A DNA stretch of 64,000 nucleotides, taken from assembly GCA_016870515.1 (NCBI GenBank), contig VGBL01000002.1, positions 133,506 through 197,505 on the forward strand. Direction: 5' to 3'. The position numbers and the translations under genes are program-made. The notes below the pieces were generated by a model, which was given only the letters and a program-made list of their open reading frames with translations, ran no database searches and had not been told where the DNA came from. Origin of the DNA: Actinomycetota bacterium (lineage in GTDB: Bacteria; Actinomycetota; Actinomycetes; S36-B12). Each line of letters begins with the position of its first letter. The stretch's first letter is position 1. This document shows positions 26,636 to 55,531 of this stretch, one piece after another.

Positions 26636-29110
26636 ATGCCCCGGCGCACGTCCTCCACCCCGCCTCGCGGCGGGTCCGGTCGGGCGTCGTCGCGCGTCGA
26701 AGGCGGCCCTGACCGGGTCATCGACATGGATGTCAACGAGGAGATGCGCTCCTCGTTCCTGGAGTACGCCTACTCGGTCATCTACTCCCGAGCCCTGCCG
26801 GATGCGCGCGATGGGCTAAAGCCGGTGCAGCGGCGAATCCTCTACCAAATGGGCGAGATGGGTCTGCGGCCCGACCGAGGGCATGTCAAGAGCGCCCGCG
26901 TGGTCGGCGAGGTGATGGGCCGGCTGCACCCCCATGGCGACTCTGCCATCTACGACGCACTGGTCCGCATGGCCCAGCCCTTCACGCTGAGGCTTCCGCT
27001 GGTAGACGGGCATGGCAATTTCGGTTCGCTCGACGACGGCCCGGCAGCTATGCGCTACACGGAGTGCCGCCTGGCACCTGCGGCCGTCGCCATGACGTCA
27101 GGGATCGACGAGGACGTCATCGACCTCGTGCCCAACTACGACGGCCGCGAGATGGAGCCGGTCGTGCTCCCGGCCGCGTTTCCGGCGCTCCTGGTCAACG
27201 GCGCCGCCGGGATTGCGGTGGGCATGGCTACCGCAATGGCCCCGCACAACCTCGGCGAGGTAACGGCTGCCGCCCGACACCTGGTCATGGATCCAACAGC
27301 CGCTACTGCAGAACTCCTGCGGTTCGTACCCGGACCCGACCTGCCGGGCGGCGGAACCATCATCGGGCTCGACGGGGTCCGCGAGGCCTACGTCACGGGC
27401 CGCGGGTCTTTTCGCATGCGGGCCACCACGCGGATTGAGCAGGTCACCCCGAGGCGCCGTGGCATCGTCGTCACGGAGCTTCCCTTCGGCGTCGGTCCTG
27501 AGCGTGTCATCGAGCGCATCAAGGAGCTTGTCTCAGGCAAAAAGGTGCAGGGCGTTTCGGACGTCGTCGACCTGACAGACGGCCAGCACGGTCTCCGACT
27601 AGTGATCGAGGTCGCGCCCTCCGTGAATCCTGAGGCGCTGCTGACCCAGCTCTACCGACAGACGCCGCTGGAGGAGGCCTTCAATATCAACGCGGTCGCC
27701 CTCGTTGACGGAGAGCCACGCACCCTCGGGCTTCGTGAACTCCTCGAGGTATTCGTTTCCCATCGACTCGCCGTCACGCGCCGGCGCAGCGACTACCGCC
27801 GCCGCCGGGCACGTGAGCGCCTCCATCTCGTGGAAGGCCTGCTCATCGCGATAGTGGACATCGACGAGGTCGTCCAGGTCATCCGCGCGAGCGATGATGC
27901 CGCCCAGGCTCGCGAACGCCTCATGAGCGTTTTCGATCTGTCCCAGGAGCAGGCGGTCTACATCCTCGACATGCCGCTGCGGCGCCTCACGAAGTTCTCG
28001 CGAATCGAACTCGATCAGGAGCGCGCCGATCTCGAGGCATCCATCGACGAACTCACTGCGATCCTCGATGACGACGCACGACTGCGCGAAGTGGTGGCAA
28101 ACGACCTCTTGGCGGTTGCCGAAGCGCACGCCACCCCTCGACGCACCGTCCTCCTCGAGGACGCTGGCACTCCCGCAGCCGCCGAGGTCCCCCTCGAGAC
28201 CGCCGACGGTCCGTGTCGAGCGCTCCTCTCCGGCACCGGCCTCCTTGCACGCACGACCGGGGCCGACGTTGGTACCGAGGGGTCGCGCACGGCCCATGAC
28301 GTGATCGTCTCGAGCACGATGAGTTCCACTCGCGGTGCCGTCGCTCTCATCACCTCGCGCGGACGAGCCCTTCGCCTGCCCGTCGTCGAACTGCCCGCGC
28401 TTCCGTCTTCCGCGCAATCACCGGCCCTCGCCGGGGGTGCCCCGCTGGGTGCGCTGGTCGATCTCGACCCAGGCGAGCGCGTGCTCGGCGTCCTGGACCT
28501 CACTGAACCGGCGGCGATCCTCCTCATCGGCACTCGCCAGGGCGTCGTCAAGCGCACGGCGCTCGTACCGCCTGGAAACAAGAATGCCTGGGATGTGATT
28601 GCCCTGGCCGACGGCGACGAGCTCGTTGGCGCCTGCGAGGCGACCGACGCTGATGACGTCGTGCTGATCTCCTCCGACGCCCAGCTCCTGACGTTCCCCG
28701 CTTCGGCGGTTCGCGTGCAAGGGCGCGGGGCTGGGGGGATGGCCGGGCTTCGCTTGGCGGCCGGCGCGACCATGATCTACTGCGGCGCAGTTGCATCCGG
28801 CGTGGCCGACGCCGAGGTCGTCACCATCGCCGGATCGCTCTCCGCCCTGCCTGGCACGGCGGCTGGATCCGTCAAGGTCAGTTGGCTCGATGAGTTCCCC
28901 GCCAAGGGGCGCGGTACCTCAGGGGTCCGTTGCCAGCGGCTGCTGCGCGGAGAAGACGCCCTCGTAACCGCATGGGCCGGCATCGGCCCCGCACGCGCTG
29001 CGAGCCCCTCGGGCCTGCCGGTTGACCTCCCGGCGGGTCACGGCAAGCGCGATGCCTCCGGAACCCCGCTGCCGACGCCCGTCGGTGCGGTGGCGGGACC
29101 GGTGCGGTGA
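26636..29110 (+). CDS. parC: DNA topoisomerase IV / gyrase subunit A paralogue
   Basis: 824 aa. [24 protein letters not shown], catalytic-Tyr region [13 protein letters not shown]-terminal beta-pinwheel repeats. Confidence 0.93.
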
Positions 29111-29958
29111 CCGCGTCGCCGCCCTGCTCGGTGCTCGCCGCGCACGAGCCCCTGGCGGGCACCGCGCCGCACGCGCGTGGCTGGCTGGTCATCGAACACC
29201 CGGGTCCCTATCCCCGGGTCGCCACGGACGCTCTCGGCGAACTCGCTGAGCCGCTTCGCACGCTCTGCCGCGAGGGTGGCGTCGCCCCGCTCCTGGCGCG
29301 TCGGCCCCGCGCCGCCGGACGACGCGTATGGCTGGCCATCGACGGGCGCATGGTGACGTGGTCGCACATCGATGCCGTCGACCTCCTCAGCGTGGACTGG
29401 GAGTCCGTAGCCGCTGGTGGCGTGCCGCGAGGTGCGGCCACGTCCATCGATCCGATCCTCTTCATCTGCACCAACGGCAAGCGCGACGCCTGCTGTGCCC
29501 AGTTCGGACGTCCCGTCGCCGACGCACTCATGCATGATCACGACGACGTCCTGGAGTGTTCCCACATCGGCGGGCATCGGCTTGCGCCTACCGCCCTCCT
29601 GCTTCCCTTCGGTTCCGTGCACGGCAGGCTGACCGCGATAAGCGGCGCGCAGCTCCTCGCTGGCGCCCAGGCCGGTCGTCTCCGCGTTGAGTCGCTGCGC
29701 GGGCTCACCCACCTGCCCGCCGATCAGCAGGTCGCGGATGCTGCCGTGCGCGACGTGGGCGGCCTTGACTCCTTCGTCCGCCTTGAGGTCACGTCCACCG
29801 GTGACGACACCCGCCGCGATTGCGTGGTCGAGACTCCTGACGGACGGCGCTGGCAGGTCCGCCTCGTCAGGTCCTCAGGCGCCCCCCGCCCGGAGTCATG
29901 CGGCAAGGAGCCCGTGCCGCCCGAATGGTGGCGGGTGGACAGCATCGGACGTGCCTAG
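29107..29958 (+). CDS. Sucrase/ferredoxin-like family protein
   Basis: GTG overlaps the parC stop (GTGA). [20 protein letters not shown]...[11 protein letters not shown] Cys/His cluster typical of Suc_Fer-like thioredoxin-fold proteins. Confidence 0.8.
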
Positions 29959-31304
29959 CCGCGGGCGGCGCTCAGCAGGTCATCGCGTGACCACAGCGTC
30001 GTTCGGTCTCGGCCCCGCTCGGCGCCGAGGGACCTCTCCGCTTGGTCGATGCGACGCCAGCCTTCGGCGTCGACAACCGCGTCGCCCAATGCAGCATCCA
30101 CACTGGCCTCGTCGGGGTGAAGTGCCGTGAAAAAGGCTGGTGACGCTGCGTCTTCGAGCAGGCAGGCAACCGTCTGCACCGCGTCCTTCTTGTTGGTGCC
30201 GATGATCCCGGTGGGCCCACGCTTGATCCACCCGGCGACGTAGAGGCCAGGCACCGGCACGTCATTGGAGACCACGCGACCATCGACGTTGGGAATCACA
30301 TTGCGCCGTTCGTCGAAGGGAACTCCCTCGAGCGCCATGCCGCGGTATCCCACGCTGCGGATGACCGCGTCGACCGCGATCGCGTGGGTGTCGCCGGTCC
30401 CCTGAGCTCCACCTTGCTCGTCGAGTTCGGTGCGCTCCACGACCAGCCCCTCCACTCGCGTGTCACCGATGATCTCCACGGGCCGACACCGAAAGTGCAG
30501 GTGGATCCGGCGCGGGCGCTCGTCATCCGATCGACTCTCCCAGTCGGCTACTACGGCGATGTTGCGCGCCACCGCCTTGTCAGCGGCCGCGGCCTGGCTT
30601 GCCGGATCGCCGACGTCGCCCCCTTCAGCAACGATGACCTGGGTCTGCTCGAGCTCGCCGAGTTCGCGAAGTTCCTTCGTCGTCCAGGTGGCCTGGGCGG
30701 GCCCACGACGACCCACGATATGCACGTCGGTCACGCTCGATGACGCGAGTGCCTCGAGCACATGCTGCGGCATGTCGGTCCAGTCGATCTCCCCTGGCGT
30801 CTTGGAGAGCACGCGCGTGACATCGACGGCCACATTGCCTACCCCGATCACGGCAACGCTCGTGGTCTCGCGTAGGAACCCGGTGAAGGCGTCGGGTGCC
30901 ATGTCAGGGTGGCCGGTGTACCAGTTGACGAAATCGGTGGCGGCGATGCTGCCTGCGAGATCCTCACCCGGGATCCCGAGCGCGCGATCGCGGGATGCGC
31001 CGTAGGTCAGGATGATGGCGTCATAGAATGTCCGCAGTTGGCCTAATGTCACGTCGGTGCCCACGTCTACATTGCCCAGGAACCGTACACCCGGCTTGTC
31101 GAGCACCTTGTCGAGCGTGTCGCGCACCGAGCGGATGCTCACGTGATCGGGGGCAACTCCGTATCGAACCAGGCCGAACGGGCTGGGGAGCTTGTCGATG
31201 ACATCCACCGAAACCTCGATATCGTCCTGGCTAGTCAGCGCGTCGGCGGCATACATCCCCGAGGGCCCCGACCCGACGACCGCCACTCGGAGTGCTCGCT
31301 CCAT
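29955..31304 (-). CDS. fprA: FprA-type (adrenodoxin-reductase-like) NADPH-ferredoxin reductase
   Basis: VAVVGSGPSGMYAAD FAD motif, GVAPDH, VIGVGNVAVDV NADP motif, GWIKRGPTGIIGTNKKDA. Collinear with M. tuberculosis FprA as I remember it. Confidence 0.9.
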   Translation of the reverse strand: MERALRVAVVGSGPSGMYAADALTSQDDIEVSVDVIDKLPSPFGLVRYGVAPDHVSIRSVRDTLDKVLDKPGVRFLGNVDVGTDVTLGQLRTFYDAIILTYGASRDRALGIPGEDLAGSIAATDFVNWYTGHPDMAPDAFTGFLRETTSVAVIGVGNVAVDVTRVLSKTPGEIDWTDMPQHVLEALASSSVTDVHIVGRRGPAQATWTTKELRELGELEQTQVIVAEGGDVGDPASQAAAADKAVARNIAVVADWESRSDDERPRRIHLHFRCRPVEIIGDTRVEGLVVERTELDEQGGAQGTGDTHAIAVDAVIRSVGYRGMALEGVPFDERRNVIPNVDGRVVSNDVPVPGLYVAGWIKRGPTGIIGTNKKDAVQTVACLLEDAASPAFFTALHPDEASVDAALGDAVVDAEGWRRIDQAERSLGAERGRDRTTLWSRDDLLSAARG

Positions 31305-31313
31305 GTCTGCTCC

Positions 31314-31955
31314 TCAGTCCAGGCCGAGCAGGTGCCGAGCCTGGTCGAAAGCCGTCTCCGGATGCACGGGGTCGAGGAAGACCGGCAGCATGCCGACCGC
31401 TTCGGCCCCCGCGAGGTTACCGGGCTGATCATCGATGAACACGCAGTCTGCTGGGCTCACGCCCAGACGGTCGGCCACGAGCCGGTAGGCCGCGGGGTCG
31501 GGCTTCATGACGCCATCTCGCCTGCCGTCGACCAGCACGTCGAAGCTGCGGATCACGCTCACGCGGTCAATCCAGGATTGGTCGTGGAAGGCGGTCAGGT
31601 CGTTGGTCAGCGCACCGACCGGGAGTCCGGCCGCCTTGGCGTCGGCGATAAGTGCGACGGCTCCGGGGCGCACGATCTCGTCCTCCGAGCCGTCGTAGAG
31701 GTGTGCCATGAACGCCGGCATCTCGACGGGCGCGCCGGTGAGCGCCTGGAACTCCGCGCAGCGGCGGCCCCAGTAGTCGCGCTCGGTCATGCCACCGGAT
31801 TGGAAGACGCGCCAATCGTCGTCGGAGGCAGGGTCGAACGGACCCGTCCACGCGAAGGTGCCGGCGGGCAACCCCATTGATCGCTCGCCGACAGCACGTA
31901 GCTCAAAGGGAGTGAGGAGGACGGGACCGCCGAAGTCGAAGACGAGAGCGGTCAG
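31314..31955 (-). CDS. HAD family hydrolase (phosphatase-type); putative CTG start
   Basis: ORF track starts at ATG 31877, but HAD motif I (LTALVFDFGGPVLL) is encoded in frame upstream of it. The only start-like codon after the in-frame TGA (31965-31967) is CTG at 31955-31953, overlapping the upstream stop (CTGA). Motif II ALTND, motif IV FIDDQPGN. Confidence 0.7.
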   Translation of the reverse strand: MTALVFDFGGPVLLTPFELRAVGERSMGLPAGTFAWTGPFDPASDDDWRVFQSGGMTERDYWGRRCAEFQALTGAPVEMPAFMAHLYDGSEDEIVRPGAVALIADAKAAGLPVGALTNDLTAFHDQSWIDRVSVIRSFDVLVDGRRDGVMKPDPAAYRLVADRLGVSPADCVFIDDQPGNLAGAEAVGMLPVFLDPVHPETAFDQARHLLGLD

Positions 31956-32245
31956 TGCTCCTCCTCAGTGATGGTGACCATGTCGTAGCGCACGACGTCG
32001 CCGAACCACCCACACTCCCCACACCACGTCATGAACACCCGCTGGTCGCCCATCCAGTACTCAGTCGAGATACCGCCATGGGTTTCGATGCTGGCCGCGC
32101 ACATGGGGCAGAACTTCGGTCGGTCCAGTAGGTGGCGCTCCGCGTCGGGGGCGAACCACGCGCCCGGAGGCGGCAGCCGATGGGGGTCCGGAGGGAGCTG
32201 GCTCAAGGCGACCCTCGGCAGTCCCTCGTTCGCATCATCAGGCAC
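31952..32245 (-). CDS. Small 4-Cys (zinc-ribbon-like) protein, 97 aa
   Basis: GTG 32245, in frame within ORF 31952..32407, overlaps the Rieske gene end by 8 nt. CPMC...(23 aa)...CGEC pair. Acidic tail TEEEH. No family recognised. Confidence 0.55.
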   Translation of the reverse strand: MPDDANEGLPRVALSQLPPDPHRLPPPGAWFAPDAERHLLDRPKFCPMCAASIETHGGISTEYWMGDQRVFMTWCGECGWFGDVVRYDMVTITEEEH

Positions 32246-33497
32246 TCGTATTGGCCCTCTCGCGCCGTGCCCAAGCATCAGCATGCAGATCGAGAAGCTG
32301 CTGCCTCTGGGGGCTGTAGCGCATCGACCCCATCGTGATGAATGCCTCGGCGAACTCTCGTTCGGCACCGAACTTATCGCGCTCGCAAGGCAACGGAATG
32401 ATGTCATGCGACTCGCGCACGGTGCCGATCGGATCCTCGCCGTTGGCGACCTTCTTCATGTTCTCCTTGAACATCTTCCGCAGCATGGCCACGCCAGCGT
32501 CGGAACGACCCAGGTGCTCCTGCGTGCGGTCTGTCACCGCCCCCTGGCTCACCCACGCCATGATGTCCTGGCCCTCGATGTAGTCGGTGATGAACCGTCC
32601 CTGGTCGTCGCGCCAGAAGTACTCATAGAAGACCGGCCGATCCTGCTGCTCCCACTGCCCGCCCGTGGGAGCGTGGTTGGAATAGAAGAGCTTCCAGGTG
32701 GTCGTGTCGTCGACCGGCACACGGATTTGCATCTGGTCGATGCCAGCGCCGCCCACCCGCATGTAGAACGGGAAGACCAGCGGATGACCTACCTTCCAGT
32801 CATCGTTGTCTTCCGATCCACCCTCGAGGACGCGGCGCTTGAGGATGCCCCACTCCATCTCCTCGAAGCCGGTCTTCAGGTGCTTCTTCTGAAAGGACTT
32901 GGGGGCGTCGAATCCCTGCGTCTCGCCCACAAAATTGAAGTAGTAGCCATGAAGCCACTCGACGTGATGAGGATCGACGGAGTTCTCCATGATCTGCAGC
33001 CAATTGCACGGAAGCGTGGCGTAGCCGCAGTCCTTGACGCCGTCCATGACGAAGACGTCAAAGCGCGGAAGCTCGGGTGCGGGGTCGGGACCGACGTAGA
33101 CCCACACCATGCCGCCCATCACCTGGGCCTTGCCCGCCCTCTGCTTCACCCGGTCGCGGAAGTTCTGGTTGTCGGCCTCAGCGGGCTGCTCCACGCAGTT
33201 GCCCTCGAAGTCCCACTTCCAGCCGTGGTAGCCGCAGCGGATGCCGTCTTCGTGCACGACGCCATAGGTCAGGGACGCGCTGCGGTGAGGGCAGTGCTCG
33301 GCCACGATGCCGTACCTGCCGGACTTGGGTGTCTTGAAGAGCGTCCAGTCCTCGCTGAGCAGTCGCACCGTCTTGGTCGGCACAGAGTCGAAGTCCTGCT
33401 CAAAGGCGATCGGGTACCAGTAGCGACGCAGGAGTCCGCCCATGGGGGTGCCAGGGCCGACGCGGGTGAGTTCTTCGTTCTGCTCGACGGTCAGCAT
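32238..33497 (-). CDS. Rieske (2Fe-2S) non-haem-iron oxygenase, single alpha-type subunit
   Basis: ATG 33497 is preceded by GGAAGGA. Rieske CPHRSASL...CGYHGW. Mononuclear-iron motif ENSVDPHHVEWLH. No beta-subunit gene nearby, which suggests the phthalate/KshA/VanA-like class. Confidence 0.9.
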   Translation of the reverse strand: MLTVEQNEELTRVGPGTPMGGLLRRYWYPIAFEQDFDSVPTKTVRLLSEDWTLFKTPKSGRYGIVAEHCPHRSASLTYGVVHEDGIRCGYHGWKWDFEGNCVEQPAEADNQNFRDRVKQRAGKAQVMGGMVWVYVGPDPAPELPRFDVFVMDGVKDCGYATLPCNWLQIMENSVDPHHVEWLHGYYFNFVGETQGFDAPKSFQKKHLKTGFEEMEWGILKRRVLEGGSEDNDDWKVGHPLVFPFYMRVGGAGIDQMQIRVPVDDTTTWKLFYSNHAPTGGQWEQQDRPVFYEYFWRDDQGRFITDYIEGQDIMAWVSQGAVTDRTQEHLGRSDAGVAMLRKMFKENMKKVANGEDPIGTVRESHDIIPLPCERDKFGAEREFAEAFITMGSMRYSPQRQQLLDLHADAWARRERANTSA

Positions 33498-33604
33498 GCG
33501 GGGTCCTTCCAGGTACAGGTGGCTCGACGTTACCGGGTGGTGCGGGTGAGGCAAGGGATTGTTGGTCCTCCCGGGACAGGGGCGTTCCTTCCGGCGGGAC
33601 CGTT

Positions 33605-33636
33605 TCCCGGGAGGAGACCTCGGTCTCCTCCCGGGA
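33605..33636 (-). promoter_or_regulatory. Intercistronic GC-rich hairpin (14-bp perfect stem, 4-nt loop)
   Basis: tcccgggaggagac-ctcg-gtctcctcccggga, 8 nt downstream of the kinase-subunit stop. A third copy of CCTCCCGGGA lies at 33567-33576. No U-tract. Confidence 0.5.
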
Positions 33637-33643
33637 AGGTAGG

Positions 33644-35455
33644 TCAGCCAATAACGCTGACGACTCCGTTGTTGCCATCAACGCGGATCATCTGGCCGGT
33701 CTTGATGGTGGTCGTGGCGAATCCGGTGCCCGTCACGGCCGGGAGGCCGTATTCGCGGCACACGATCGCGGCGTGGCTCATCATGCCGCCGGTGTCCGTC
33801 ACGGTCGCCAGGATCTTGCCGAAGATCGGCGCCCAGGACGGCGCGGTGAGCGGTGCGACGAGAATCTCGCCCTGCTGGACCTCGCTGATCTGCTCCGGCG
33901 CGTAGATGACTCGCGCAGGCCCCTCCACCAGACCCGGGGATGCGGACATGCCGCGGAGCTCGCCCTCCTTGAGGTCGCCGCCACCGAGCCAGGAGTTCAC
34001 GCTGTCAGACGTGATTCCCCAGAGCATGACCGTGAACGGCTCGGTGATGACCTCCGGGGGCGCGCCGAGCGCGGGCACCGGCTTCCACTTGCGCAGGGCA
34101 TCACAGATCTTCTGGCGCTTGTCGATGATGGCCGGCCAACGACCAGGACCGGCCGCAGGCTCGGGCGTGGCCCACGAGACGTAGTAGTCCCAAAGGGCAT
34201 CCTCGACCTCGGTGCGCTTGAGGTAGAAGATGTCGTTGGGCTCGCTCCAGAAGCCTTCTTTGACGAAGACCTCGCCCAGCTGGCGCATCTTGCGCCAGAT
34301 GACCGAGTGGCTCCAGTGCTCGACATAGAAATTGTGGTTTTCCACGTAGGGGAAGACCACGCGAGCCAGACCCAGCTTGCCCTGGAATGCCTCGCGATCC
34401 TCGTCGGTAGCGAGCAGCTCGGAGTATTCGTTGACGACGCGGTCGCGCTCTGCGCGGATGGCATCCATCGGACGGGCGAGGTCGTCACCCGCCTGCAGCT
34501 TGACGATGTAGTCGTTGATGAACTCGAAGGGGATCTCGACGTTTTCAATCCAGATCCTGTCCGAGTGGTAGAAGCCCGATCCCGTGGAAAAGTTAAACCA
34601 CGGCTCCGCTGACTCCTGGAACGACGCGATCCAGGCTCGGCCAGCATCGCTGCCCTTGAGGATCTCGCAGGTGGCCTCGACATCACCCGCGGCAAAGGCC
34701 TCAGCGACGCCTGAGTCGAGGGCAACGCGAGCGAGGCGCTTGAGCTCCTCGTCGGGGCGGAAGAGATCGACCTCCACGCCGGCCACCATCTTGGCGATGG
34801 CGAGGTCGGGAATGCCAGGGAACGCCTCCTTGCAGAAGCCGAAGAAGTCGAGGTAGGCGGCGTAGCCGAGGTTGAGGAACTCGAAGTGGTAGTTCCACAG
34901 CTTCAGCGACAGGTCGAGCAGTGTGCGGTAGTTCTCCTGGATCCGGTAGCCGGACCCCAGACCCGCACCGGACTTCACGACCCTGTCAGCGTCCTCGATC
35001 TCAGGAAGCGGCTCGAAGTCGACCGCCTCGAGCTCCTTGACCAGGTCGCGGATCTTGATCATCCACTTGTCGTAGAGGTCGTTCCAGTTCATGAAGTAGA
35101 AGCCGGCCCGATCCATGAAGTTGGCCACGCGCGCTTCAATCATCGCGGGGTCCGCAGGGACCGGTGTGAGATAGCCGTACCCATTCAGGATGCGGAACGC
35201 GATGCCGTTGGCTGGAGGCACCTGCAGGTGACGCGTATTGTACTGCGAGAGCGACGCGATGGCGAACTCGTAGAAGGTCGCGTCCCAGGGCGTCATAACC
35301 TTGGGCCAGTGGACGCCATCCTGGAACCAGAAAATCGAGTCCTCGAACTCTCGTCGCGACTCGCTGAACAGCGACGAGTAGACGTACATGTCCTGCCAAC
35401 CCTCGGCGCCCTCAGGCGTCTCGATGTCGAACGGACTGGGGAACCGGTCGGCCAT
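33644..35455 (-). CDS. PEP-utilising (swivelling phospho-His domain) protein, phenylphosphate synthase alpha / CreH/I-like large subunit
   Basis: The C-terminal ~90 aa are the mobile His domain (ILVAPLTAPSWAPIF...TDTGGMMSHAAIVCREYGLPAV). The protein ends there, so there is no PEP/pyruvate TIM-barrel domain. The ~500-aa N-terminal region has no recognised motif. Start MADRFP (35455) has a GAGAGGAAG RBS; the ORF is open to 35491. Confidence 0.85.
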   Translation of the reverse strand: MADRFPSPFDIETPEGAEGWQDMYVYSSLFSESRREFEDSIFWFQDGVHWPKVMTPWDATFYEFAIASLSQYNTRHLQVPPANGIAFRILNGYGYLTPVPADPAMIEARVANFMDRAGFYFMNWNDLYDKWMIKIRDLVKELEAVDFEPLPEIEDADRVVKSGAGLGSGYRIQENYRTLLDLSLKLWNYHFEFLNLGYAAYLDFFGFCKEAFPGIPDLAIAKMVAGVEVDLFRPDEELKRLARVALDSGVAEAFAAGDVEATCEILKGSDAGRAWIASFQESAEPWFNFSTGSGFYHSDRIWIENVEIPFEFINDYIVKLQAGDDLARPMDAIRAERDRVVNEYSELLATDEDREAFQGKLGLARVVFPYVENHNFYVEHWSHSVIWRKMRQLGEVFVKEGFWSEPNDIFYLKRTEVEDALWDYYVSWATPEPAAGPGRWPAIIDKRQKICDALRKWKPVPALGAPPEVITEPFTVMLWGITSDSVNSWLGGGDLKEGELRGMSASPGLVEGPARVIYAPEQISEVQQGEILVAPLTAPSWAPIFGKILATVTDTGGMMSHAAIVCREYGLPAVTGTGFATTTIKTGQMIRVDGNNGVVSVIG

Positions 35456-35528
35456 CTGATCTTCCTCTCGTGTGATCGTGTCCGGAGGCACGAATCCTGG
35501 TGATCTTCTTCTGCTTTGGGATCTTTCC

Positions 35529-36605
35529 CTATTGCTTCTTGGTGTATAGCGGATTCATCAAGGTCGAGACGATGCTGGCCATCGGGTCCTTGGCTGCACC
35601 ACCCGTCACTGATTCGCGCGGCTTCTTGCTCCACACCGTCTCCGGCCGGGCCTGCAGGAGGATGATGTTCTCTCCCTCGGGCAGGTCCGCGTCGACGGCC
35701 CACTCGATGTCCTGGGGGCACCCGTAGTGTCGCTCGGCCGTCTTGGCGAGACTAGCCACTGCCTTCAATTGCACGTCGGTCATGCACGGCTTCTCGGCAC
35801 GGTCGTCGTCGATCGTGGCCTTCTCGACCGAGTCGTGATCGGTCAGTCGGTATTCGTGCGCTTTGTTGCTGATGTCGCGCTTGGTGACCTCTAGGAGCAC
35901 CTTGTCGATGAGGAAGTTGTCGGGTGTGACCTCGCCCGACACCACCCCCTCGCCGAAGCCCCAGGCCGCATCGATGGCGACCTGCGAACGGTCGCCGTTG
36001 GCCGGGTTCAGCGTGAAGGCGACTCCCGCCGCGATGGGCCGGACCATCTTCTGGATGACCACGGCCATGTCGACGGAGCGGTGCTCGTATCCCATTTCCA
36101 CGCGGTAGCACGTTGCGCGGTCGGTGAACAGGCTCGCCCAGCAACGACGCACGGCGTCTACGACGGCATCATCCCCACGGATCCACAGGTAGGTGTCGTG
36201 CTCGCCCGCGAAGGATGCGTCAGGCGAATCCTCCGACGTGGCCGACGATCGCACCGCTACCGGCAGGGAGTCGACCTCGCACTTGCGGCAGAGTTGCTCA
36301 TAGTCGAGGCGAATCCGCTCCTCGACGTGAGCAGGCAGTGGCATCGTACGGATAACGTCGCGGATCTCCGCACACACGGTGCTCACCTGCGCGGTGTCGG
36401 ATGTGTCGAGGCCGTGGAGCAGCCGCGCTAGGGTGGCATCCAGATCGGCCGCATCATGCGCCGCCCGGTAGCCAGCCGTGGTCACGGCGTAGCCGGGAGG
36501 CACGGGCAGTCCCACCCCGGTCATCTCGCCCAGACTGGCGGCCTTGCCGCCGACCTCGCTCTTCAGCCCGGGCCAGTAGCTCTCGAACCACATGGTCACG
36601 CTCAT
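35529..36605 (-). CDS. PEP/pyruvate-binding (PPDK_N, ATP-grasp) protein, phenylphosphate synthase beta / CreH/I-like small subunit
   Basis: VGGKAASLGEM..GLPVPPGYAVT and VAVRSSATSEDSPDASFAGEHDTYL signatures of the nucleotide-binding domain of PEP synthase. 358 aa. ATG 36605 overlaps the upstream stop (ATGA). Confidence 0.85.
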   Translation of the reverse strand: MSVTMWFESYWPGLKSEVGGKAASLGEMTGVGLPVPPGYAVTTAGYRAAHDAADLDATLARLLHGLDTSDTAQVSTVCAEIRDVIRTMPLPAHVEERIRLDYEQLCRKCEVDSLPVAVRSSATSEDSPDASFAGEHDTYLWIRGDDAVVDAVRRCWASLFTDRATCYRVEMGYEHRSVDMAVVIQKMVRPIAAGVAFTLNPANGDRSQVAIDAAWGFGEGVVSGEVTPDNFLIDKVLLEVTKRDISNKAHEYRLTDHDSVEKATIDDDRAEKPCMTDVQLKAVASLAKTAERHYGCPQDIEWAVDADLPEGENIILLQARPETVWSKKPRESVTGGAAKDPMASIVSTLMNPLYTKKQ

Positions 36606-37711
36606 GCGGATTCCCCCCGGCGACTGACGGGCAGTGCCCGCCCATCGAGTCCCTGCCACCAGTCGGGCAGTGCATCGAAGTCGGGTACGGCGACCTCTTG
36701 GACGCGATTGCGATAGAGCACGAGCGCGGACTCGCCACCCTCGAGCAGTCGGACGCGCACGAGCTCGGTGTTGAAGGGCTCGCCCGGGTCATAGCCCAGC
36801 GCCCAGGTGGCGAATGCACGCATGGGTCCGGAGTGCGTCGCGACGATGACGCTCTGACCGGGAGCGTCGCCGTGGACGCGCATGAGGCCTGCCCAGAAGC
36901 GCCGCACCGCCGCAACCGGGGGCTCGAACGTGAGCATCGGCATGGTGAGCCAGTGTGTGATGGGGTCGCCGCCGGCCTGCTGGATGCCCCAGAAGCGGTC
37001 CACCTCGACGAGCCAGGTGGGGCGCCCGCCTAGGCCGATGCGCTCGTACTTCTCCATCTCGGAGTGGTATTGCCGGAATGCCTGCGTAACGTCGCGGAAG
37101 CCGTCGGAGGTCATGACCTGGAAGTTGCGGAACTCCTCATAGGCCGTGACGTCACCCACCGTTGCATCGCGGCCAAAGAGGACCAGCTGATCGAGAAGGC
37201 CCCTGCGGATTCCCTCGGCGGTCTGGCGCGCCCTGTTGGTGTCGGCACACGCCATGGTCACGTGGTGTCCGGTCATGACTCGTCGCGCAAGTTCTTGCCC
37301 CCGGCGGTGCGCCTGCCACGAGCCGAGCGGCGTGAGTCCTGATTCAGTCGAGTATCCCTGAGTCTCGCCGTGCCGGACGAAGTAGACGTCGGTGACCGCG
37401 CCCTTGGTCTGGTCCTTGCGCTCCGGGATGATCTCCTTGGTACGCGTCACCTCGGCCCATGCACGTGTTGCGCCGACTTCGGCGCCCTCCCACAGCGGCA
37501 CCGGTGCATCCAGGGACGTCTCTCCGCTCCGACGATCGCGGAACCGGCGCAGGTAGAGGGGCGTCTCGTCTTCGGTCTGCGCCGGAGCGGCGACTGCGGG
37601 TTGGCCGCCTCGCGCCTCGCGCTCGAGGTAGCGCTGGAGGTAGGCCGGCGCGTCGGGGCGTTCCGTACGCGGCAGGGCAATGGGCGTGGCCTGTGGCTCG
37701 GTCATCGTCAT
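36602..37711 (-). CDS. Histidine phosphatase (phosphoglycerate-mutase-like) family protein with ~108-aa N-terminal extension
   Basis: RHG motif VYFVRHGETQGY, distal VIVATHSGPMRAF. 369 aa against ~200-230 typical. The extension holds two copies of a P.YL[QR]R[YF].[ED]R motif. Confidence 0.8.
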   Translation of the reverse strand: MTMTEPQATPIALPRTERPDAPAYLQRYLEREARGGQPAVAAPAQTEDETPLYLRRFRDRRSGETSLDAPVPLWEGAEVGATRAWAEVTRTKEIIPERKDQTKGAVTDVYFVRHGETQGYSTESGLTPLGSWQAHRRGQELARRVMTGHHVTMACADTNRARQTAEGIRRGLLDQLVLFGRDATVGDVTAYEEFRNFQVMTSDGFRDVTQAFRQYHSEMEKYERIGLGGRPTWLVEVDRFWGIQQAGGDPITHWLTMPMLTFEPPVAAVRRFWAGLMRVHGDAPGQSVIVATHSGPMRAFATWALGYDPGEPFNTELVRVRLLEGGESALVLYRNRVQEVAVPDFDALPDWWQGLDGRALPVSRRGESA

Positions 37712-37719
37712 GCCATCCC

Positions 37720-38631
37720 TTAGCTGTGCACCGTCAGGAAGCGCTGATTGACGACGCCGTCGTAGTAGAAGAGCGCCCGGCCCATTTCGCCTTCGGTCCA
37801 GGTGATGGGGGGCTCGTCGGGGTCACTCCAGTAACCGCCGGTAAAGACCTCGTTGCGATTGCCCGCCGGGTCGAAGAAGTAGATGCAGTGCCCGCGCGTA
37901 GCGCCGTGACGCGTGGGGTTGGTCTCGATACGCACGCCGTGGAAGGCGAGCACATCCGAAGCCGTGCGAATGTCGTTCCAGTCGTCAACCCAGAAGGCGA
38001 AGTGGTGCAGCCCGCCGTCTGCACCGGTCACCAGCGCGATGTCATGTGAGGAGTGCGACACCTCCAGCCAGGTGGCGATCTGGAAGCCGTCATCACCCAC
38101 CACCTGCTCGGTGAGGTGGAAGTCAAGGACGTCCTGCAGGAACGCCGTCATCCCGTTGACGTCCTCGACCGTGAGGAAGACGTGATCGATGCGCGGCGGG
38201 GCGATGCCGACCAGGCCCAACGGCCGGGGAGGCGGGTTGGTGAGCGGCAGGAGGTTGCCCACCTGCTCCATGCCGTGGATGAGCTCCATCTGGTGGCCCG
38301 AGGGGGTCTGGAAGCGGATGACCGAGCCCCCGCCCACGCCGACCTCGGCTCCCTCCAGGCGCTTGACGGGCACGCCCGCCGCCTCGAGACGTGCCGCATA
38401 GAAGTCGAGGTCGTCGAGGCTCTCCACCTTCCAGCCCATGTGCGCCAGGCCGTAGGCGGGCGCATAGGTAAGGACCACCGAATGATGCTGGTGCTCGTCC
38501 CAGCACTTCAGGTAGACGCGCTCGGGCTCCCGAGCGGTCTCCACGAGGCCGAGTACTTCGGTGTAGTAGGCCGTGGCGAGCTCAAGGTCGGGAACCTTGA
38601 TCTCCACGTGCGACAGGCGCAGGATGGCCAT
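37720..38631 (-). CDS. Catechol 2,3-dioxygenase (XylE-type extradiol dioxygenase), copy A
   Basis: 303 aa, two-module VOC fold. Metal ligands in IDHVFL, GLHHFAFW and GNRNEVF. C-terminus NQRFLTVHS is collinear with XylE. Confidence 0.92.
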   Translation of the reverse strand: MAILRLSHVEIKVPDLELATAYYTEVLGLVETAREPERVYLKCWDEHQHHSVVLTYAPAYGLAHMGWKVESLDDLDFYAARLEAAGVPVKRLEGAEVGVGGGSVIRFQTPSGHQMELIHGMEQVGNLLPLTNPPPRPLGLVGIAPPRIDHVFLTVEDVNGMTAFLQDVLDFHLTEQVVGDDGFQIATWLEVSHSSHDIALVTGADGGLHHFAFWVDDWNDIRTASDVLAFHGVRIETNPTRHGATRGHCIYFFDPAGNRNEVFTGGYWSDPDEPPITWTEGEMGRALFYYDGVVNQRFLTVHS

Positions 38632-39539
38632 CAGGTGTGCACCTTCATGAATCGATCGTTGAGTTCACCCTCGTAGTAGAAGACGGCGCGGCCGATGTTG
38701 TCCTCGGTCCACGTGATGGTTGGGAAGTCCGGGTCGGGGCGGTAGCCCCCGGTGAACACCTCATTGCGAGTGCCGAGGGGATCAAAGAAGTAGATGGTGT
38801 TGCCTCGCGTGATGCCGTGGCGCGTGGGACCCACGTCGATCTGGATGCCGTTGTAGGCCAGGATGTCAGCGCTCTTGCGCACGTGATCCCAGTCGTCCAG
38901 CCAGAACGCGAAGTGATGGAGCCCGCCGTTGGGGCCGGAGACGATGGCCAGGTCGTGCGGCGAATGCGAGCGCTCCATCCACGTGGCGGCCTGGTGGCCC
39001 TCGCCATCCAGGAGCTGCTCGGTGACCCGGAAGCCCAAGACGTCGGTGAAGAACTTCGTGGACTCCCCCACCTCCTCGGCGGTCACCAGCAGGTGGTCCA
39101 TGCGTGGCGGGGCGATGCCGCGCGTGCCCTCGAAGAAGGGCGCGGGGTTCAGATTGCCGGTCGCACGACCGATCCTGTCGACGTCGTGCACGAGTTCCAT
39201 CACCTGACCCGAGGGCGTCTCGAATCTGATCGACTCGCCCTGGCCGATCGACGCACCCTTGCTGATGCGCTCGACCGGCAGGCCGTACTTGCCGACGGCG
39301 TTCTCGAGGTCGGACAGGTCGTCCTCGCGCAGCACCTTGAACGACATCAGGTCGAAGCCGACGCGCGGCGCGTAGGAGATGCGCAGCGAGTGATGGTCGA
39401 CCTCGTCCCAGCACTTGAGGTACACGGAGTTCTCGTCGCGCTCGACCTCCAGCAAGCCCATGACCTCGGTGTAGTAGGCCGCGGCCAGGTCGAGATCGGT
39501 GACCGTGATGTCGACGTGCGCCAGGCGCAGGATTCCCAT
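38631..39539 (-). CDS. Catechol 2,3-dioxygenase (XylE-type extradiol dioxygenase), copy B
   Basis: ATG 39539, in frame within ORF 38631..40025. 302 aa. MDHLLV, GLHHFAFW, GTRNEVF, ending DRFMKVHT. By eye, just over half of positions are identical to copy A. Its stop overlaps the copy A start (TGATG). Confidence 0.92.
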   Translation of the reverse strand: MGILRLAHVDITVTDLDLAAAYYTEVMGLLEVERDENSVYLKCWDEVDHHSLRISYAPRVGFDLMSFKVLREDDLSDLENAVGKYGLPVERISKGASIGQGESIRFETPSGQVMELVHDVDRIGRATGNLNPAPFFEGTRGIAPPRMDHLLVTAEEVGESTKFFTDVLGFRVTEQLLDGEGHQAATWMERSHSPHDLAIVSGPNGGLHHFAFWLDDWDHVRKSADILAYNGIQIDVGPTRHGITRGNTIYFFDPLGTRNEVFTGGYRPDPDFPTITWTEDNIGRAVFYYEGELNDRFMKVHT

Positions 39540-39596
39540 GTCGTCGCTCCCCAATCCCTCGGGCGTCGCTCGTGGCCCGAACCTAGGGCCTACCTG

Positions 39597-39631
39597 TCCC
39601 GCATCGAAGGACAGCGTTCCCGCATGCGGGA
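39597..39631. promoter_or_regulatory. Candidate operator: 14-bp perfect palindrome TCCCGCATGCGGGA plus upstream half-site
   Basis: Palindrome at 39618-39631. The TCCCGCA half-site repeats at 39597-39603 (21-bp spacing). Both lie in the 84-bp divergent region between the dioxygenase operon and the hypothetical/IclR operon. Confidence 0.35.
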
Positions 39632-40322
39632 CGTATCTGCTACGGTCCCGCTCGTGGAGGGGACGACACCCGAAGGCATGCGCCAGGCGATGGCCGACTA
39701 CGTCCGCGCCCTGCACCAGGCCTACCTCGATGCCGTCGCGACCCTTCCCCCGGCCGAACGCGCGCGCCTGCCACTTGTCGCTGCCGGCGACGTGACCGTG
39801 GCCGCCGCGGGCGTGCGCAGCCTGCATGTGATCGGCACCCTCGAAGCATTGCCCGCGCCTCAAGGACCCGAAGTCGAAATCCGCGACTGCGTCGACGATC
39901 TCGCATGGACACTGCGCTTCTTCGATCCCGTTGTCGCGCCCGCTTTGGGGATCATCGACGAATCCGCCGGCCCCAACTACGACGAGGTACGCCGTGCTCT
40001 CGGCATCAGAACGGTCGCGTATCACCTGGCCGTCCCGCCGGGGGGCAGCCTCACGTCACACCACGCTCTGCATGCTGGCACCGGCCTGGCGCACAGCCAT
40101 GCTGCCGCAGCACGTGACTTCGATGCACTTCGCGCGCATGCTCCTGGCCGCGAAGGGCTAGTCGACGAGATGCAGGGGGCCAGCATTGCCGGCCTCGCGC
40201 GTTCGCAGGTTCTCCTGGCCCACGCCATCGCGCCCGGACTCGATGGCCTGAGCTTGGAGCCACCCGCCGATCCCGCCGACGTCCGCCGCATCCTGCTCTC
40301 CTATCTGAGGTCTCCCTCGTGA
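39624..40322 (+). CDS. Hypothetical protein (~232 aa) co-transcribed with the IclR regulator
   Basis: 3' portion of ORF 38637..40322; the 5' ~1 kb of that ORF is antisense to the dioxygenase gene. In-frame starts at ATG 39624, GTG 39654 and ATG 39678. Stop overlaps the IclR start (GTGA). No motif recognised. Confidence 0.55.
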   Translation: MRDVSATVPLVEGTTPEGMRQAMADYVRALHQAYLDAVATLPPAERARLPLVAAGDVTVAAAGVRSLHVIGTLEALPAPQGPEVEIRDCVDDLAWTLRFFDPVVAPALGIIDESAGPNYDEVRRALGIRTVAYHLAVPPGGSLTSHHALHAGTGLAHSHAAAARDFDALRAHAPGREGLVDEMQGASIAGLARSQVLLAHAIAPGLDGLSLEPPADPADVRRILLSYLRSPS

Positions 40323-41143
40323 CCCCGACTCCCCCCAAGCGGCAGCACTCCACCCTGTCCAGCGTGCGCAACGCCGCTCGCCTGCTCAAGGAGTTCGGCC
40401 ACGGCGACCGCGACATGGGCGTCACCGAGATCTCCCGGCGGTTAGGCATCGGCAAAAGCACCGCGCACCGACTGCTGAGCACGCTGGCCGACGAGCGTCT
40501 CCTGGAGCAGGATCCGGACACGGGCGCCTACCGACTCGGATTGGCCATGTACGAACTCGGCGCGTCCGTGGCGCTCCACAACGACCTGCACGAGGCGTGC
40601 TCGCCTGTGATCGACCAATTGCGCAATGCAACGCGCGAGACCGTGCAGGTAGCCGTGCTCGACGGTCGCGAGGTTGTCTACGTCGAGCGGCGCGAGAGCC
40701 CACAAACCCTTCGCCTGTTCGGACGCGTCGGTCACCGCAACGACGCCCACTGCACGAGCACCGGCAAACTGCTGCTCGCCTACCTCGATGATGAGCAACT
40801 CCAGGCCACGGTGCGCGGCTGGAAGCTCAAGCGCAAGACCCCCTACACGATCACGGATCCGCGGGCCCTGCTCAGTGCACTTGTGGAGGTCCGACGGCAG
40901 GGCTGGGCCGAAAACGTCAACGAGTCTGAACTGGGGGCGGCATCGATCGCGGCACCCATCCGCAACGAGCGCGGTGAGGTGATCGCGGCGCTGTCCATCG
41001 TGGGCCCCGTCCAGCGCCTGGGCAGCGATTCCCTGCGGCGCTTCGCCCGACCCGCCGTGGAGGCCGCCCTCGCGGTGAGCCGACGCCTGGGCTATAGAGA
41101 TCCACGCACCCCCCGTCGCACAGCAGGAGAGGGCAACCCATGA
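40319..41143 (+). CDS. IclR family transcriptional regulator
   Basis: wHTH MGVTEISRRLGIGKSTAHRLLSTL, plus an IclR effector domain (HCTSTGKLLLAY, ELGAASIAAPI). Confidence 0.92.
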   Translation: MTPTPPKRQHSTLSSVRNAARLLKEFGHGDRDMGVTEISRRLGIGKSTAHRLLSTLADERLLEQDPDTGAYRLGLAMYELGASVALHNDLHEACSPVIDQLRNATRETVQVAVLDGREVVYVERRESPQTLRLFGRVGHRNDAHCTSTGKLLLAYLDDEQLQATVRGWKLKRKTPYTITDPRALLSALVEVRRQGWAENVNESELGAASIAAPIRNERGEVIAALSIVGPVQRLGSDSLRRFARPAVEAALAVSRRLGYRDPRTPRRTAGEGNP

Positions 41144-41931: not shown

Positions 41932-41946
41932 GCCGAAAGGACACCC

Positions 41947-51715: not shown

Positions 51716-51872
51716 TCTTGCCCTGCCTCCGATTGGTCGCATGAAGAGGGCCCGAGTCAAGTCCGTGTGGACCTGGCCGGGCTCTCATGCCGCGCTGAGC
51801 GGCGTGCCTAGGGCAACGCCCCGGGCCCCATTATTGTTCCATGTGCTCGGCCTCCGGCACGTCAGGGGCAGG

Positions 51873-52670: not shown

Positions 52671-52745
52671 GACCCGACGGTAGGAAGCCCCAGTGCTGGG
52701 TTGCCAGATGGTGGGCCTACCTGTGCATAGCCCGTGCGCGGTTGC

Positions 52746-53921: not shown

Positions 53922-53928
53922 CGAGCGC

Positions 53929-55245: not shown

Positions 55246-55391
55246 TGTGGGTGTCTCCTAACGGTTAGGTGGGCGGAGATGGTCGCGGATCCGGGGGTAC
55301 CGGATGGCGGAAGGCGTGCCTCAGTGGCTGCGTGTCAGTGGACAACAGCGCATAGGGACCTCCGAACCATCCGGGGTCTTGCCCTGTGCAA

Positions 55392-55498: not shown

Positions 55499-55531
55499 TG
55501 CGTTGAAGATACCCCATGGATCCGGCTGCGC

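Follow-up and report, generated by a model that had tools for sequence, protein, structure and literature searches.

A predicted two-component aryl dikinase linked to a Rieske oxygenase, a histidine phosphatase and tandem extradiol dioxygenases in a conserved actinobacterial gene module

Introduction

The known aerobic routes that lead from phenols to catechols use flavin or di-iron phenol hydroxylases. Catabolism that starts with phosphorylation is, to our knowledge, known for three cases only: anaerobic phenol carboxylation, P450-dependent oxidation of the 4-cresol side chain, and hydroxyphenylethanone carboxylation. Here we analyze a 64-kb stretch of DNA from an Actinomycetota bacterium (assembly GCA_016870515.1, contig VGBL01000002.1, positions 133,506 to 197,505; "the window" refers to this whole stretch). 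It carries a gene module for a kinase pair resembling phosphoenolpyruvate (PEP) synthase (KinS and KinL), a Rieske oxygenase, a histidine-phosphatase-family protein (HisP), a four-cysteine mini-protein and two catechol 2,3-dioxygenases (C23O_a and C23O_b). An earlier reading of the same DNA, here called the original prediction, had taken these genes as one pathway. The module is apparently undescribed, and it probably belongs with phosphorylation-initiated phenolic catabolism.

Each characterized aryl-kinase pathway has its own downstream enzyme, for which the intermediate must be phosphorylated, and its own dedicated way of getting rid of the phosphate. The Pps system of Thauera and Azoarcus (PpsABC plus phenylphosphate carboxylase) shares kinase architecture and mechanism class with the module. 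Unlike the module, it is anaerobic, contains the CBS-domain protein PpsC, processes the aryl phosphate with a UbiD-type carboxylase that expels the phosphate during carboxylation, and has no oxygenase or ring-cleavage dioxygenase. Family scans of the window found neither a CBS-domain PpsC nor a UbiD-type carboxylase, both of which are present in the Pps-type reference locus. The Cre system for 4-cresol in Corynebacterium glutamicum (CreHI-CreJEF-CreD) is closer in its logic: it is aerobic, places an aryl dikinase first, follows it with an oxygenase acting on the aryl phosphate and a phosphohydrolase, and includes an IclR regulator. Only Cre, however, relies on a P450 (CreJ) with its own ferredoxin and reductase (CreEF) for methyl side-chain oxidation, on the HD-domain phosphohydrolase CreD, and on short-chain dehydrogenase/reductase (SDR) and aldehyde dehydrogenase steps (CreG/CreC) that end at 4-hydroxybenzoate, whereas the module has a Rieske oxygenase, a His_Phos_1 protein and a HAD phosphatase, a mini-protein resembling a zinc ribbon, and tandem extradiol dioxygenases. 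P450, HD and SDR genes were absent from the window's module in family scans and present in the Cre-type reference loci.

The HpeHI/AcvAB systems are also aerobic and also run from a kinase through an enzyme that takes only the phosphorylated intermediate to a phosphatase, with trapping of a diffusible phenol as the proposed rationale (PMC9618137, PMC12167813). They differ in using a biotin-dependent carboxylase and a NagD-like HAD phosphatase, in yielding vanillate or 4-hydroxybenzoate, and in a kinase of a separate clade; a biotin-dependent carboxylase was absent from the window by family scans and present in the Hpe/Acv-type reference locus. In Ensifer adhaerens HP1, genetic evidence shows that 3-hydroxypyridine cannot be hydroxylated on its ring without a pair of PEP-utilizer and PPDK_N proteins, and no phosphorylated product was detected in this HpdA system (bioRxiv 10.1101/2020.01.08.898148). 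In that system a molybdenum hydroxylase acts on an N-heterocycle, and there is no Rieske enzyme, histidine phosphatase or meta cleavage.

A further parallel is the aniline system, in which ATP-driven gamma-glutamylation precedes a Rieske dioxygenase that yields catechol for meta cleavage, and a hydrolase reverses excess conjugate. It resembles our proposal for the module in that ATP activates the ring substituent before the Rieske step and in having a hydrolase for the activated intermediate. It differs in its ligase, which is glutamine-synthetase-like and not a dikinase, and in its oxygenase, which is a two-subunit alpha-beta enzyme and not alpha-only. The literature that we found covers PpsAB, CreHI, HpeHI, AcvAB, MarK and HpdA. 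An arrangement of kinase, Rieske oxygenase, histidine phosphatase and extradiol dioxygenase was not found in the full-text literature, most subscription journals lying outside its coverage, and within that coverage no published functional description of the cluster speaks against the original prediction.

Conservation and gene order

To establish how often these genes occur together, we used three scans of species-representative genomes, with KinL, HisP and the Rieske protein as the respective seeds. Together they returned at least 227 loci in at least 157 distinct genomic places, some contigs being counted under more than one seed. The KinL- and Rieske-seeded counts given in this paper are among the matches listed, and a partner was counted only where enough sequence remained. 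Around HisP, the scan recovered KinS in 132 of 134 loci, KinL in 119 of 120, the Rieske gene in 115 of 115, the tandem C23O pair in 127 of 127 and an IclR gene in 114 of 114. Seeding with KinL gave HisP in 69/71 loci and the Rieske and mini-protein genes in 67/68 each. Seeding with the Rieske protein gave KinL upstream of it in 57/58, the mini-protein gene after it in 71/71 and HisP in 53/54; in the sole locus that lacks KinL, from a metagenome-assembled genome (MAG), the gene is frameshifted. The five elements (two C23O genes, HisP, kinase pair, Rieske oxygenase and mini-protein) are thus found together in about 100% of loci and in one fixed order, which is invariant across Nanopelagicales-type MAGs, Nocardioides, Longivirga, Blastococcus, Micromonospora, Nostocoides, Streptosporangiaceae and Acidimicrobiia. 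Because genes for proteins that are 44-99% identical stand in the same order in at least 157 distinct genomic places, the arrangement is far beyond chance. The neighborhood survey favors the original prediction, in that the kinase pair, Rieske enzyme, histidine phosphatase and two dioxygenases co-occur nearly without exception.

In the window, nine minus-strand open reading frames (ORFs) run from 39539 down to 29955, beginning with C23O_a (Table 1). The ORF listing, the translations and the Pfam and NCBIfam scans reproduced every gene, motif and coordinate of the original prediction, and each of the four profiles in question (PPDK_N, PEP-utilizers, Rieske and His_Phos_1) gave a match. The closely spaced junctions described there are also exact: (i) the C23O_a stop overlaps the C23O_b start (TGATG at 38629-38633); (ii) an 8-nt gap separates C23O_b from HisP; (iii) the HisP stop and the KinS start are joined by an ATGA overlap at 36602-36605; (iv) the Rieske stop and the GTG start of the mini-protein gene overlap by 8 nt at 32238-32245; (v) the stop of the mini-protein gene overlaps the CTG start of the HAD gene (CTGA at 31952-31955); and (vi) a 9-nt gap separates the HAD gene from a co-directional FprA-like gene. 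The unusual CTG start was read correctly. Motif I of the HAD protein (FDFGG) lies upstream of the first ATG (31877), so that an ATG start would cut off the catalytic DxD motif, relatives have ATG at the exact codon of the window's CTG ("MTALVFDFGG" versus "LTALVFDFGG"), and from the CTG the protein spans the whole TIGR02247 profile (profile positions 3-195).

Only two junctions are longer, KinS/KinL (73 nt) and KinL/Rieske (146 nt). The KinL-Rieske spacer folds with a minimum free energy of -62.8 kcal/mol (z = -3.1) and holds a GC-rich, perfectly paired hairpin of 15 bp. In relatives this spacer measures 17 to 361 nt; Nanopelagicales-type loci repeatedly have structured ones of 100-170 nt, and other lineages have 17-70 nt. 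The hairpin is lineage-specific, and it may act as an attenuator within the operon or stabilize the mRNA.

The kinase pair

The kinase is split into a 358-aa PPDK_N subunit (KinS) and a 603-aa subunit (KinL) that carries the PEP-utilizers mobile domain at 527-597 only. No Pfam match to the PEP/pyruvate-binding TIM barrel was found in either protein, and the NCBIfam models for PEP synthase, pyruvate, phosphate dikinase (PPDK) and RPH match only the ATP-grasp or swivel parts, far under their cut-offs. The domain scans thus bear out the earlier description of a split, PEP-synthase-like pair without the pyruvate domain. Phenolic kinases are recognized by a T/S-x-x-G-G-x-x-x-H swivel motif in which Met replaces the regulatory Thr of PEP synthase, and characterized members are about 45% identical to each other (PMC12167813). 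The swivel motif of KinL is TDTGGMMSH at 553-561 (T-x-x-G-G-x-x-x-H), in which Met takes the place of the regulatory Thr and a Ser precedes the catalytic His; PpsA and CreH share both features.

For comparison with known kinases we used annotated plasmid loci: the pps-ppc cluster of Azoarcus sp. KH32C plasmid pAZKH (locus L081), two Rhodococcus clusters of the Cre type (pRB98 and R. ruber Y14; loci L082 and L086) that hold genes for a P450, a ferredoxin, a reductase, an HD phosphohydrolase, an SDR and an aldehyde dehydrogenase, and an Hpe/Acv-type cluster from Rhizobium with a biotin carboxylase and a HAD gene (locus L084). Over its full length, KinL is 53% identical to the Cre-type, 47% to the PpsA-type and 44% to the Hpe/Acv-type large subunits; for KinS the values are 52% (CreI-type), 47% (PpsB-type) and 41% (Hpe/Acv-type). 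In neighbor-joining trees rooted on a Bacillus pair associated with nonribosomal peptide synthetases, the window kinase and 80 relatives form one monophyletic clade, sister to the Cre type and apart from the Pps and Hpe types. Both subunits group with the Pps/Cre aryl dikinases, as the original prediction required, and not with PEP synthase, PPDK or single-chain RPH-type enzymes. By every sequence criterion KinS and KinL are two-component aryl dikinases (PpsAB, CreHI, HpeHI), and from this family membership the pair should make an aryl phosphate. Their database names are "pyruvate, water dikinase."

Two related loci have unusual kinase surroundings. In one MAG (locus L079, 8822-11812), KinS and KinL are fused in one ORF of about 996 aa; the chromosomal site is the same (ParE ... 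FprA-SucFer-ParC) and the IclR and lower-pathway genes are kept, with no Rieske, mini-protein, HisP or C23O gene. This locus may represent a reduced form of the module or an alternative to it. A Thermomicrobium roseum megaplasmid (locus L085, 8986-17462) carries a further kinase pair of this family and, at a distance of 1.8 kb, a three-gene set of the xanthine dehydrogenase family (molybdopterin-binding, 2Fe-2S-binding and subunit M genes), with an opposite-strand biotin carboxylase gene (accC) between them, an arrangement that recalls the HpdA system.

The Rieske oxygenase, the mini-protein and electron supply

The best solved relatives of the Rieske enzyme are phthalate dioxygenases (PDO; 7FJL, PDO KF1, E = 4e-48, and 7FHR), with far weaker PDB matches to O-demethylases (around E = 1e-12), carbazole dioxygenase and KshA. 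Like PDO it is alpha-only, no gene for a beta subunit having been found in the module by Pfam domain scans, and it has the Rieske and 2-His-1-Asp ligands: the Rieske motif CPHR...CGYH is at residue 69, the iron-site motif DPHHVEWLH (D-x-x-H-x4-H) is at 175, and Asp343 of PDO has its counterpart in GQD309, so that all metal ligands are aligned. The anionic-substrate preference of the family would be shared as well. Identity to PDO is roughly 30% by eye. Phthalate is bound in PDO by Arg207 and Arg244 (PMC8649396). In a pairwise HMMER alignment, which is approximate, Arg207 falls in an insertion absent from the window protein, and Arg244 stands opposite a Val flanked by Lys and His. From its sequence we classify the enzyme as phthalate-family and alpha-only; because the phthalate-binding arginines are not clearly kept in this approximate alignment, it may not be a phthalate dioxygenase proper. 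The module also differs from PDO systems in having no dihydrodiol dehydrogenase or decarboxylase for a dihydroxylated acid, and its Rieske gene is always found with the kinase, phosphatase and mini-protein genes. Among Pfam families, a LigXa_C match covers only profile positions 204-260 of 304 and a VanA_C match is weak.

The mini-protein has a conserved core (WF..DA..HLLD.P.FCP.C...TWC..C.W.G) with two Cys pairs, CPxC and CxxC. The core resembles a zinc ribbon or a rubredoxin knuckle; no Pfam or NCBIfam family matches the protein.

A likely electron carrier for the oxygenase, judged from its sequence, is the Rieske-type ferredoxin of the divergent operon (Table 1), which resembles the HcaC and AndAb ferredoxin subunits and has counterparts in many related loci (30-74% identity). 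Seventeen Nocardioides-type loci have a gene resembling phthalate dioxygenase reductase (PDR; NAD_binding_1 plus Fer2, class IA) after the HAD gene, in the position that the FprA-like gene occupies in the window, a further likeness to phthalate-family systems. These loci continue co-directionally into the lower pathway and an aldehyde dehydrogenase gene as one long operon (in L070, L075-L077 and L080, the PDR-like and aldehyde dehydrogenase genes lie at about 13.7-15.0 kb and 18.7-20.4 kb), and their pathway is more complete than that of the window.

The FprA-type reductase had originally been counted as part of the operon's pathway. This assignment does not survive the comparison, since the gene is present only next to the backbone of sucrase/ferredoxin-like (SucFer) and topoisomerase (ParC) genes (18/18 loci versus 0/35 elsewhere). 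It is probably a flanking backbone gene and not a member of the module, and it may be reached by read-through from the operon. FprA as a dedicated oxygenase reductase was considered and dropped as unsupported, the gene following the chromosomal backbone.

The phosphatases

HisP belongs to branch 1 of the histidine phosphatase superfamily, with RHG and HSG motifs on a PGM-like fold. Its catalytic motifs RHGE (113) and HSG (293) are invariant, as are 117 alignment columns across 38 homologues. The 1181 database homologues carry generic names only. In the AlphaFold2 (AF2) model the core is confident and its fold is like that of PhoE and phosphoserine-phosphatase types (Foldseek probability 1.0) at about 15% identity; PDB sequence and fold searches found no close solved relative. 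Residues 1-100 have low pLDDT and are predicted to be disordered, and this N-terminal extension of about 100 residues nevertheless carries the conserved motifs LPRTERPDAPAYL, PLYLRRFR and TKEIVPE. The gene lies between the dioxygenases and the kinase, is translationally coupled, and is as conserved as those of the catalytic enzymes. A PDB sequence search with HisP returned only spurious, repeat-summed matches to transcription activator-like effectors (TALE), none of which passed alone, and these were discarded.

The HAD phosphatase gene was present in 55 of 63 KinL-seeded loci and absent from Acidimicrobiia-type loci.

Ring cleavage and the lower pathway

Both C23O proteins exceed the TIGR03211 trusted cut-off and are type I extradiol dioxygenases. 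The nearest solved structures to C23O_a are 5ZNH and XylE (1MPY), and its motifs (RMDH146, HSPHD192, LHHFAF207, TRHG239, IYFFDP249 and RNEVF258) recur as the same set in C23O_b, which is 54% identical to it. From the families to which they belong, it is well supported that the dioxygenases and the lower-pathway genes would process a catechol. An aldehyde dehydrogenase gene occurs in loci of the Nocardioides type and in some further ones, and where the cluster is fuller it includes the dehydrogenative branch (aldehyde dehydrogenase plus 4-oxalocrotonate decarboxylase).

A proposed pathway and its alternatives

We propose a phosphorylation-initiated aerobic pathway in which a small phenolic compound is converted to a catechol for ring cleavage, and we give this reading an even chance of being correct. 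Phenol itself, or a phenol substituted at position 4, is the probable substrate. By analogy with PpsAB, CreHI and HpeHI, KinS would present ATP, the swivel His561 of KinL would be pyrophosphorylated, and the beta-phosphate would pass to the phenolic hydroxyl (net: ATP + ArOH -> ArO-PO3 + AMP + Pi), which would trap the diffusible phenol and give it an anionic handle. Phthalate-family Rieske oxygenases typically recognize anionic aromatic substrates, and the Rieske enzyme would make or unmask an ortho oxygen on the aryl phosphate, most simply by ortho-monohydroxylation, with electrons arriving through the Rieske ferredoxin or, in Nocardioides-type loci, the PDR-like reductase; the adjacent mini-protein may take part. 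HisP would then hydrolyze the 2-hydroxyaryl phosphate to the catechol, the HAD protein being an accessory or back-up phosphatase. In the last step, which is well supported by homology, the two C23O enzymes would open the ring, and hydratase, aldolase, acetaldehyde dehydrogenase and decarboxylase would carry the product to pyruvate and acetyl-CoA. IclR would control both divergent operons. We infer action of the Rieske enzyme on the aryl phosphate, followed by release through HisP, because the genetic linkage is near-absolute and because characterized aryl-kinase pathways work in this way; the need for a kinase pair in 3-hydroxypyridine hydroxylation adds to this. Ortho-oxygenation with HisP hydrolysis is favored because it explains why HisP is never lost. 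The module contains no transporter gene, which fits diffusion plus trapping of phenol as proposed for phenolic kinases (PMC12167813).

Several observations weigh against this proposal. The sequence of the Rieske enzyme is compatible with more than one reaction type, and variants with O-demethylation or 1,2-dioxygenation may apply. If the oxygenase itself expelled the phosphate, a phosphatase step would not be needed; and HisP, with its disordered yet motif-bearing N-terminus and unusual conservation, could act on a protein partner and not on a metabolite. Two conserved components, the mini-protein and a 232-aa His-rich protein encoded in the divergent operon, are left unaccounted for, and 18 of 53 loci have no reductase next to the module. 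Downstream of ring opening, a hydroxymuconic-semialdehyde dehydrogenase was not found in the 64-kb window by tblastn with the aldehyde dehydrogenases of relatives, nor was a ring-fission-product hydrolase found there (the window's one alpha/beta hydrolase lies beside a Cys/Met PLP enzyme and was taken as a MetX-type methionine-biosynthesis gene), and small ORFs starting with Met-Pro gave no convincing candidate for 4-oxalocrotonate tautomerase. The route is therefore incomplete in this genome unless genes for the semialdehyde dehydrogenase or hydrolase and for the tautomerase lie elsewhere. Taken as a whole, the original prediction was favored by the domain, phylogeny, neighborhood and literature checks; its inclusion of FprA was not supported, and it had missed that the 232-aa gene and the divergent operon are part of the module and that the semialdehyde step is lacking.

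The main alternatives concern what the Rieske enzyme does to the aryl phosphate. It could be an O-demethylase: a 2-methoxyphenol of the guaiacol type would be phosphorylated, its methyl group hydroxylated and formaldehyde released, after which HisP would free the catechol. Dicamba O-demethylase (DdmC), whose substrate has a methoxy group ortho to an anionic group, is a detectable relative of the Rieske enzyme, and the LigXa_C and weak VanA_C matches point the same way, as does the report that AcvAB phosphorylates guaiacol (PMC12624787). The product of such a reaction would still need a phosphatase, explaining the strict conservation of HisP. We nonetheless consider O-demethylation unlikely: the ring-dihydroxylating phthalate dioxygenases are much better matches than the demethylases, the LigXa_C match is confined to a short part of its profile, and no version of the module has a formaldehyde-handling gene. 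Another possibility is 1,2-(ipso, ortho) dioxygenation at the carbon that bears the phosphate, with an unstable adduct that would collapse to catechol and Pi, its leaving group, with no phosphatase needed, and with HisP and HAD only as safety valves for excess aryl phosphate. Angular attack at aryl-heteroatom carbons occurs in the same oxygenase family (carbazole 1,9a-dioxygenase, phenoxybenzoate dioxygenase), and carbazole 1,9a-dioxygenase is a detectable relative of the window enzyme. The aniline route provides a precedent for ATP activation ahead of a Rieske dioxygenase, and the lack of a dihydrodiol dehydrogenase in the module fits a product that rearomatizes by itself. However, a phosphatase that is near-universal (69/71 in the KinL-seeded and 53/54 in the Rieske-seeded matches listed), coupled and highly conserved is more than we would expect of a safety valve, and ipso attack is for us an unlikely explanation.

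A more distant reading separates the two halves of the module. The Rieske enzyme would take an unphosphorylated anionic aromatic (benzoate- or phthalate-like), and KinS, KinL and HisP would form a trapping, regulatory or phospho-relay unit in which HisP acts on the phospho-His of KinL. The resemblance to phthalate dioxygenases, which need no substrate activation, would agree with this, as would the HisP N-terminus, which is like a protein-docking segment in being disordered yet motif-bearing, and locus L079, which keeps the fused kinase and lower pathway without Rieske, HisP and C23O genes. Yet kinase and Rieske genes co-occur reciprocally in nearly every locus, in fixed order and in one operon; the insertion bearing Arg207 of PDO is absent and Arg244 stands opposite a non-basic residue (approximate alignment); and there is no decarboxylase or dihydrodiol dehydrogenase to bring a dihydroxylated acid to catechol. 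Such a separation is thus improbable. Least credible, and in our judgment close to negligible, is an ordinary split PEP synthase/PPDK or a rifamycin-type antibiotic phosphotransferase that adjoins a meta-cleavage operon by chance. The database name and the partial NCBIfam matches to PEP synthase and RPH models would suggest one, but those matches cover only the ATP-grasp and swivel parts far under the cut-offs, the PEP/pyruvate-binding domain is missing, the full-length match is to aryl kinases, and the association with catabolic genes is fixed.

Returning to the phosphorylation-initiated pathway, a bolder form of it deserves mention, to which we lean somewhat less than halfway. Phenol phosphorylation would be the obligatory entry to a dedicated aryl-phosphate Rieske oxygenase, with the phosphate either expelled by 1,2-dioxygenation or removed from a catechol monophosphate by a new histidine-phosphatase family; the zinc-ribbon-like oxygenase partner and the 232-aa protein would be new components, and the whole a major unrecognized sink for trace phenolics in lakes and soils. 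If the proposal is true, it would bring a Rieske oxygenase with specificity for aryl phosphates, and so a new type of reaction, and a function for three protein families that are now without one. The module is widespread among freshwater and soil actinobacteria (at least 157 distinct genomic places), including abundant uncultured lake actinobacteria labeled Candidatus Nanopelagicales, and it could matter for the turnover of low-concentration phenolics derived from lignin and humic matter; HpeHI has a submicromolar Km, which suggests that such kinases scavenge their substrates. Cultured carriers (Nocardioides, Longivirga, Blastococcus and Micromonospora) make the idea directly testable. Among these strains are Nocardioides aquiterrae JCM 11813, N. 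baculatus G10, N. allogilvus KCTC 49020, N. psychrotolerans, N. litoris DSM 103718, N. zhouii, Longivirga aurantiaca CGMCC 4.7317, Blastococcus jejuensis JCM 15614 and Micromonospora globispora S2901, and Nostocoides sp. Soil756 is a further one.

The divergent operon and the chromosomal setting

A compact second operon runs on the plus strand, divergent from the C23O_a operon (Table 1), with ATGA overlaps between genes of the lower meta-cleavage part (41140-44668). We count this operon, with its IclR and lower-pathway genes, and the 232-aa gene as part of the module. The beta-carbonic anhydrase gene at the end of the operon is kept in few relatives (7 loci).

Table 1. Features of the module and its divergent operon in the window
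Feature	Position	Strand	Evidence or remark
C23O_a, catechol 2,3-dioxygenase, 302 aa	38631-39539	-	TIGR03211 379 bits (cut-off 320)
C23O_b, second catechol 2,3-dioxygenase, 303 aa	37720-38631	-	TIGR03211 360 bits (cut-off 320)
HisP, His_Phos_1 protein, 369 aa	36602-37711	-	Pfam His_Phos_1; RHGE at 113, HSG at 293
KinS, ATP-grasp subunit, 358 aa	35529-36605	-	Pfam PPDK_N, E 1e-110
KinL, substrate-binding and swivel phospho-His subunit, 603 aa	33644-35455	-	PEP-utilizers 527-597; PRK08296.1-2 825 bits
15-bp perfect hairpin in KinL-Rieske spacer	33604-33637	-	no U-tail; z = -3.1
Phthalate-family alpha-only Rieske oxygenase, 419 aa	32238-33497	-	Pfam Rieske and LigXa_C
4-Cys mini-protein, 97 aa	31952-32245	-	CPMC...CGEC; GTG start
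HAD-IA phosphatase, 213 aa	31314-31955	-	Pfam, NCBIfam TIGR02247; CTG start
FprA/adrenodoxin-reductase-like flavoprotein, 449 aa	29955-31304	-	Pfam Pyr_redox_2
232-aa His-rich protein gene	39624-40322	+	tblastn conservation; stop overlaps IclR start (GTGA)
IclR-family regulator	40319-41143	+	Pfam; PcaR/PobR-like by NCBIfam
2-oxopent-4-enoate hydratase	41140-41931	+	family scans
Acetaldehyde dehydrogenase	41947-42858	+	family scans
4-hydroxy-2-oxovalerate aldolase	42855-43889	+	family scans
4-oxalocrotonate-decarboxylase-like gene	43886-44668	+	family scans
Rieske-type [2Fe-2S] ferredoxin, 124 aa	44675-45049	+	Pfam Rieske; CLHKG...CPSH at residue 42
Beta-carbonic anhydrase	45042-45563	+	8-nt overlap with Rieske ferredoxin stop

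The first gene of this operon, divergent from C23O_a and translationally coupled to IclR, is conserved in at least 63 loci by tblastn. Its 518 database homologues are all named "hypothetical," and no Pfam or NCBIfam family matches the protein. Eight His residues are invariant, and the motif HHALHAGTGLAHSH holds His 146, 147, 150, 157 and 159. The AF2 model is confident (pLDDT 89.9) and found no fold match in a PDB search (best E = 1.3). A role in metal binding, sensing or catalysis could be envisaged. Public gene calls (JGI records; L235-L237) give C23O_a as a 464-aa protein from a GTG at 40025, which masks the 232-aa gene. We rejected this extended C23O_a, since the extension (39540-40025, minus strand) is far less conserved than the opposite-strand 232-aa frame (51% versus 81% in locus L002 and 36% versus 56% in locus L010).

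The divergent promoter region contains a perfect palindrome, CCCGCATGCGGG, at 39619-39630, which overlaps the start codon (ATG) of the 232-aa gene. This palindrome is either a candidate operator for IclR or coincidental. In a scan for promoter and terminator consensus sequences, counts were not above those in shuffled sequence, and the scan was uninformative for this high-GC actinobacterium.

The catabolic block of about 15.6 kb is placed between GyrA/ParC-type topoisomerase and sucrase/ferredoxin-like genes (26636-29958) on one side and a GyrB/ParE-type gene (46478-48604) on the other. From 50138 to 63975, family scans of the window found ordinary non-catabolic functions, e.g., a sigma-70-type sigma factor and methionine-biosynthesis enzymes; for the first 25 kb, ORFs were listed with no family-library scan. 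Many Nanopelagicales-type relatives likewise have the block between two type II topoisomerase subunit genes, and the closest genomes among the matches listed are MAGs labeled Candidatus Nanopelagicales. Identical proteins are encoded on contigs of the JGI metagenomes 3300020578, 3300020109, 3300020196 and 3300021092.

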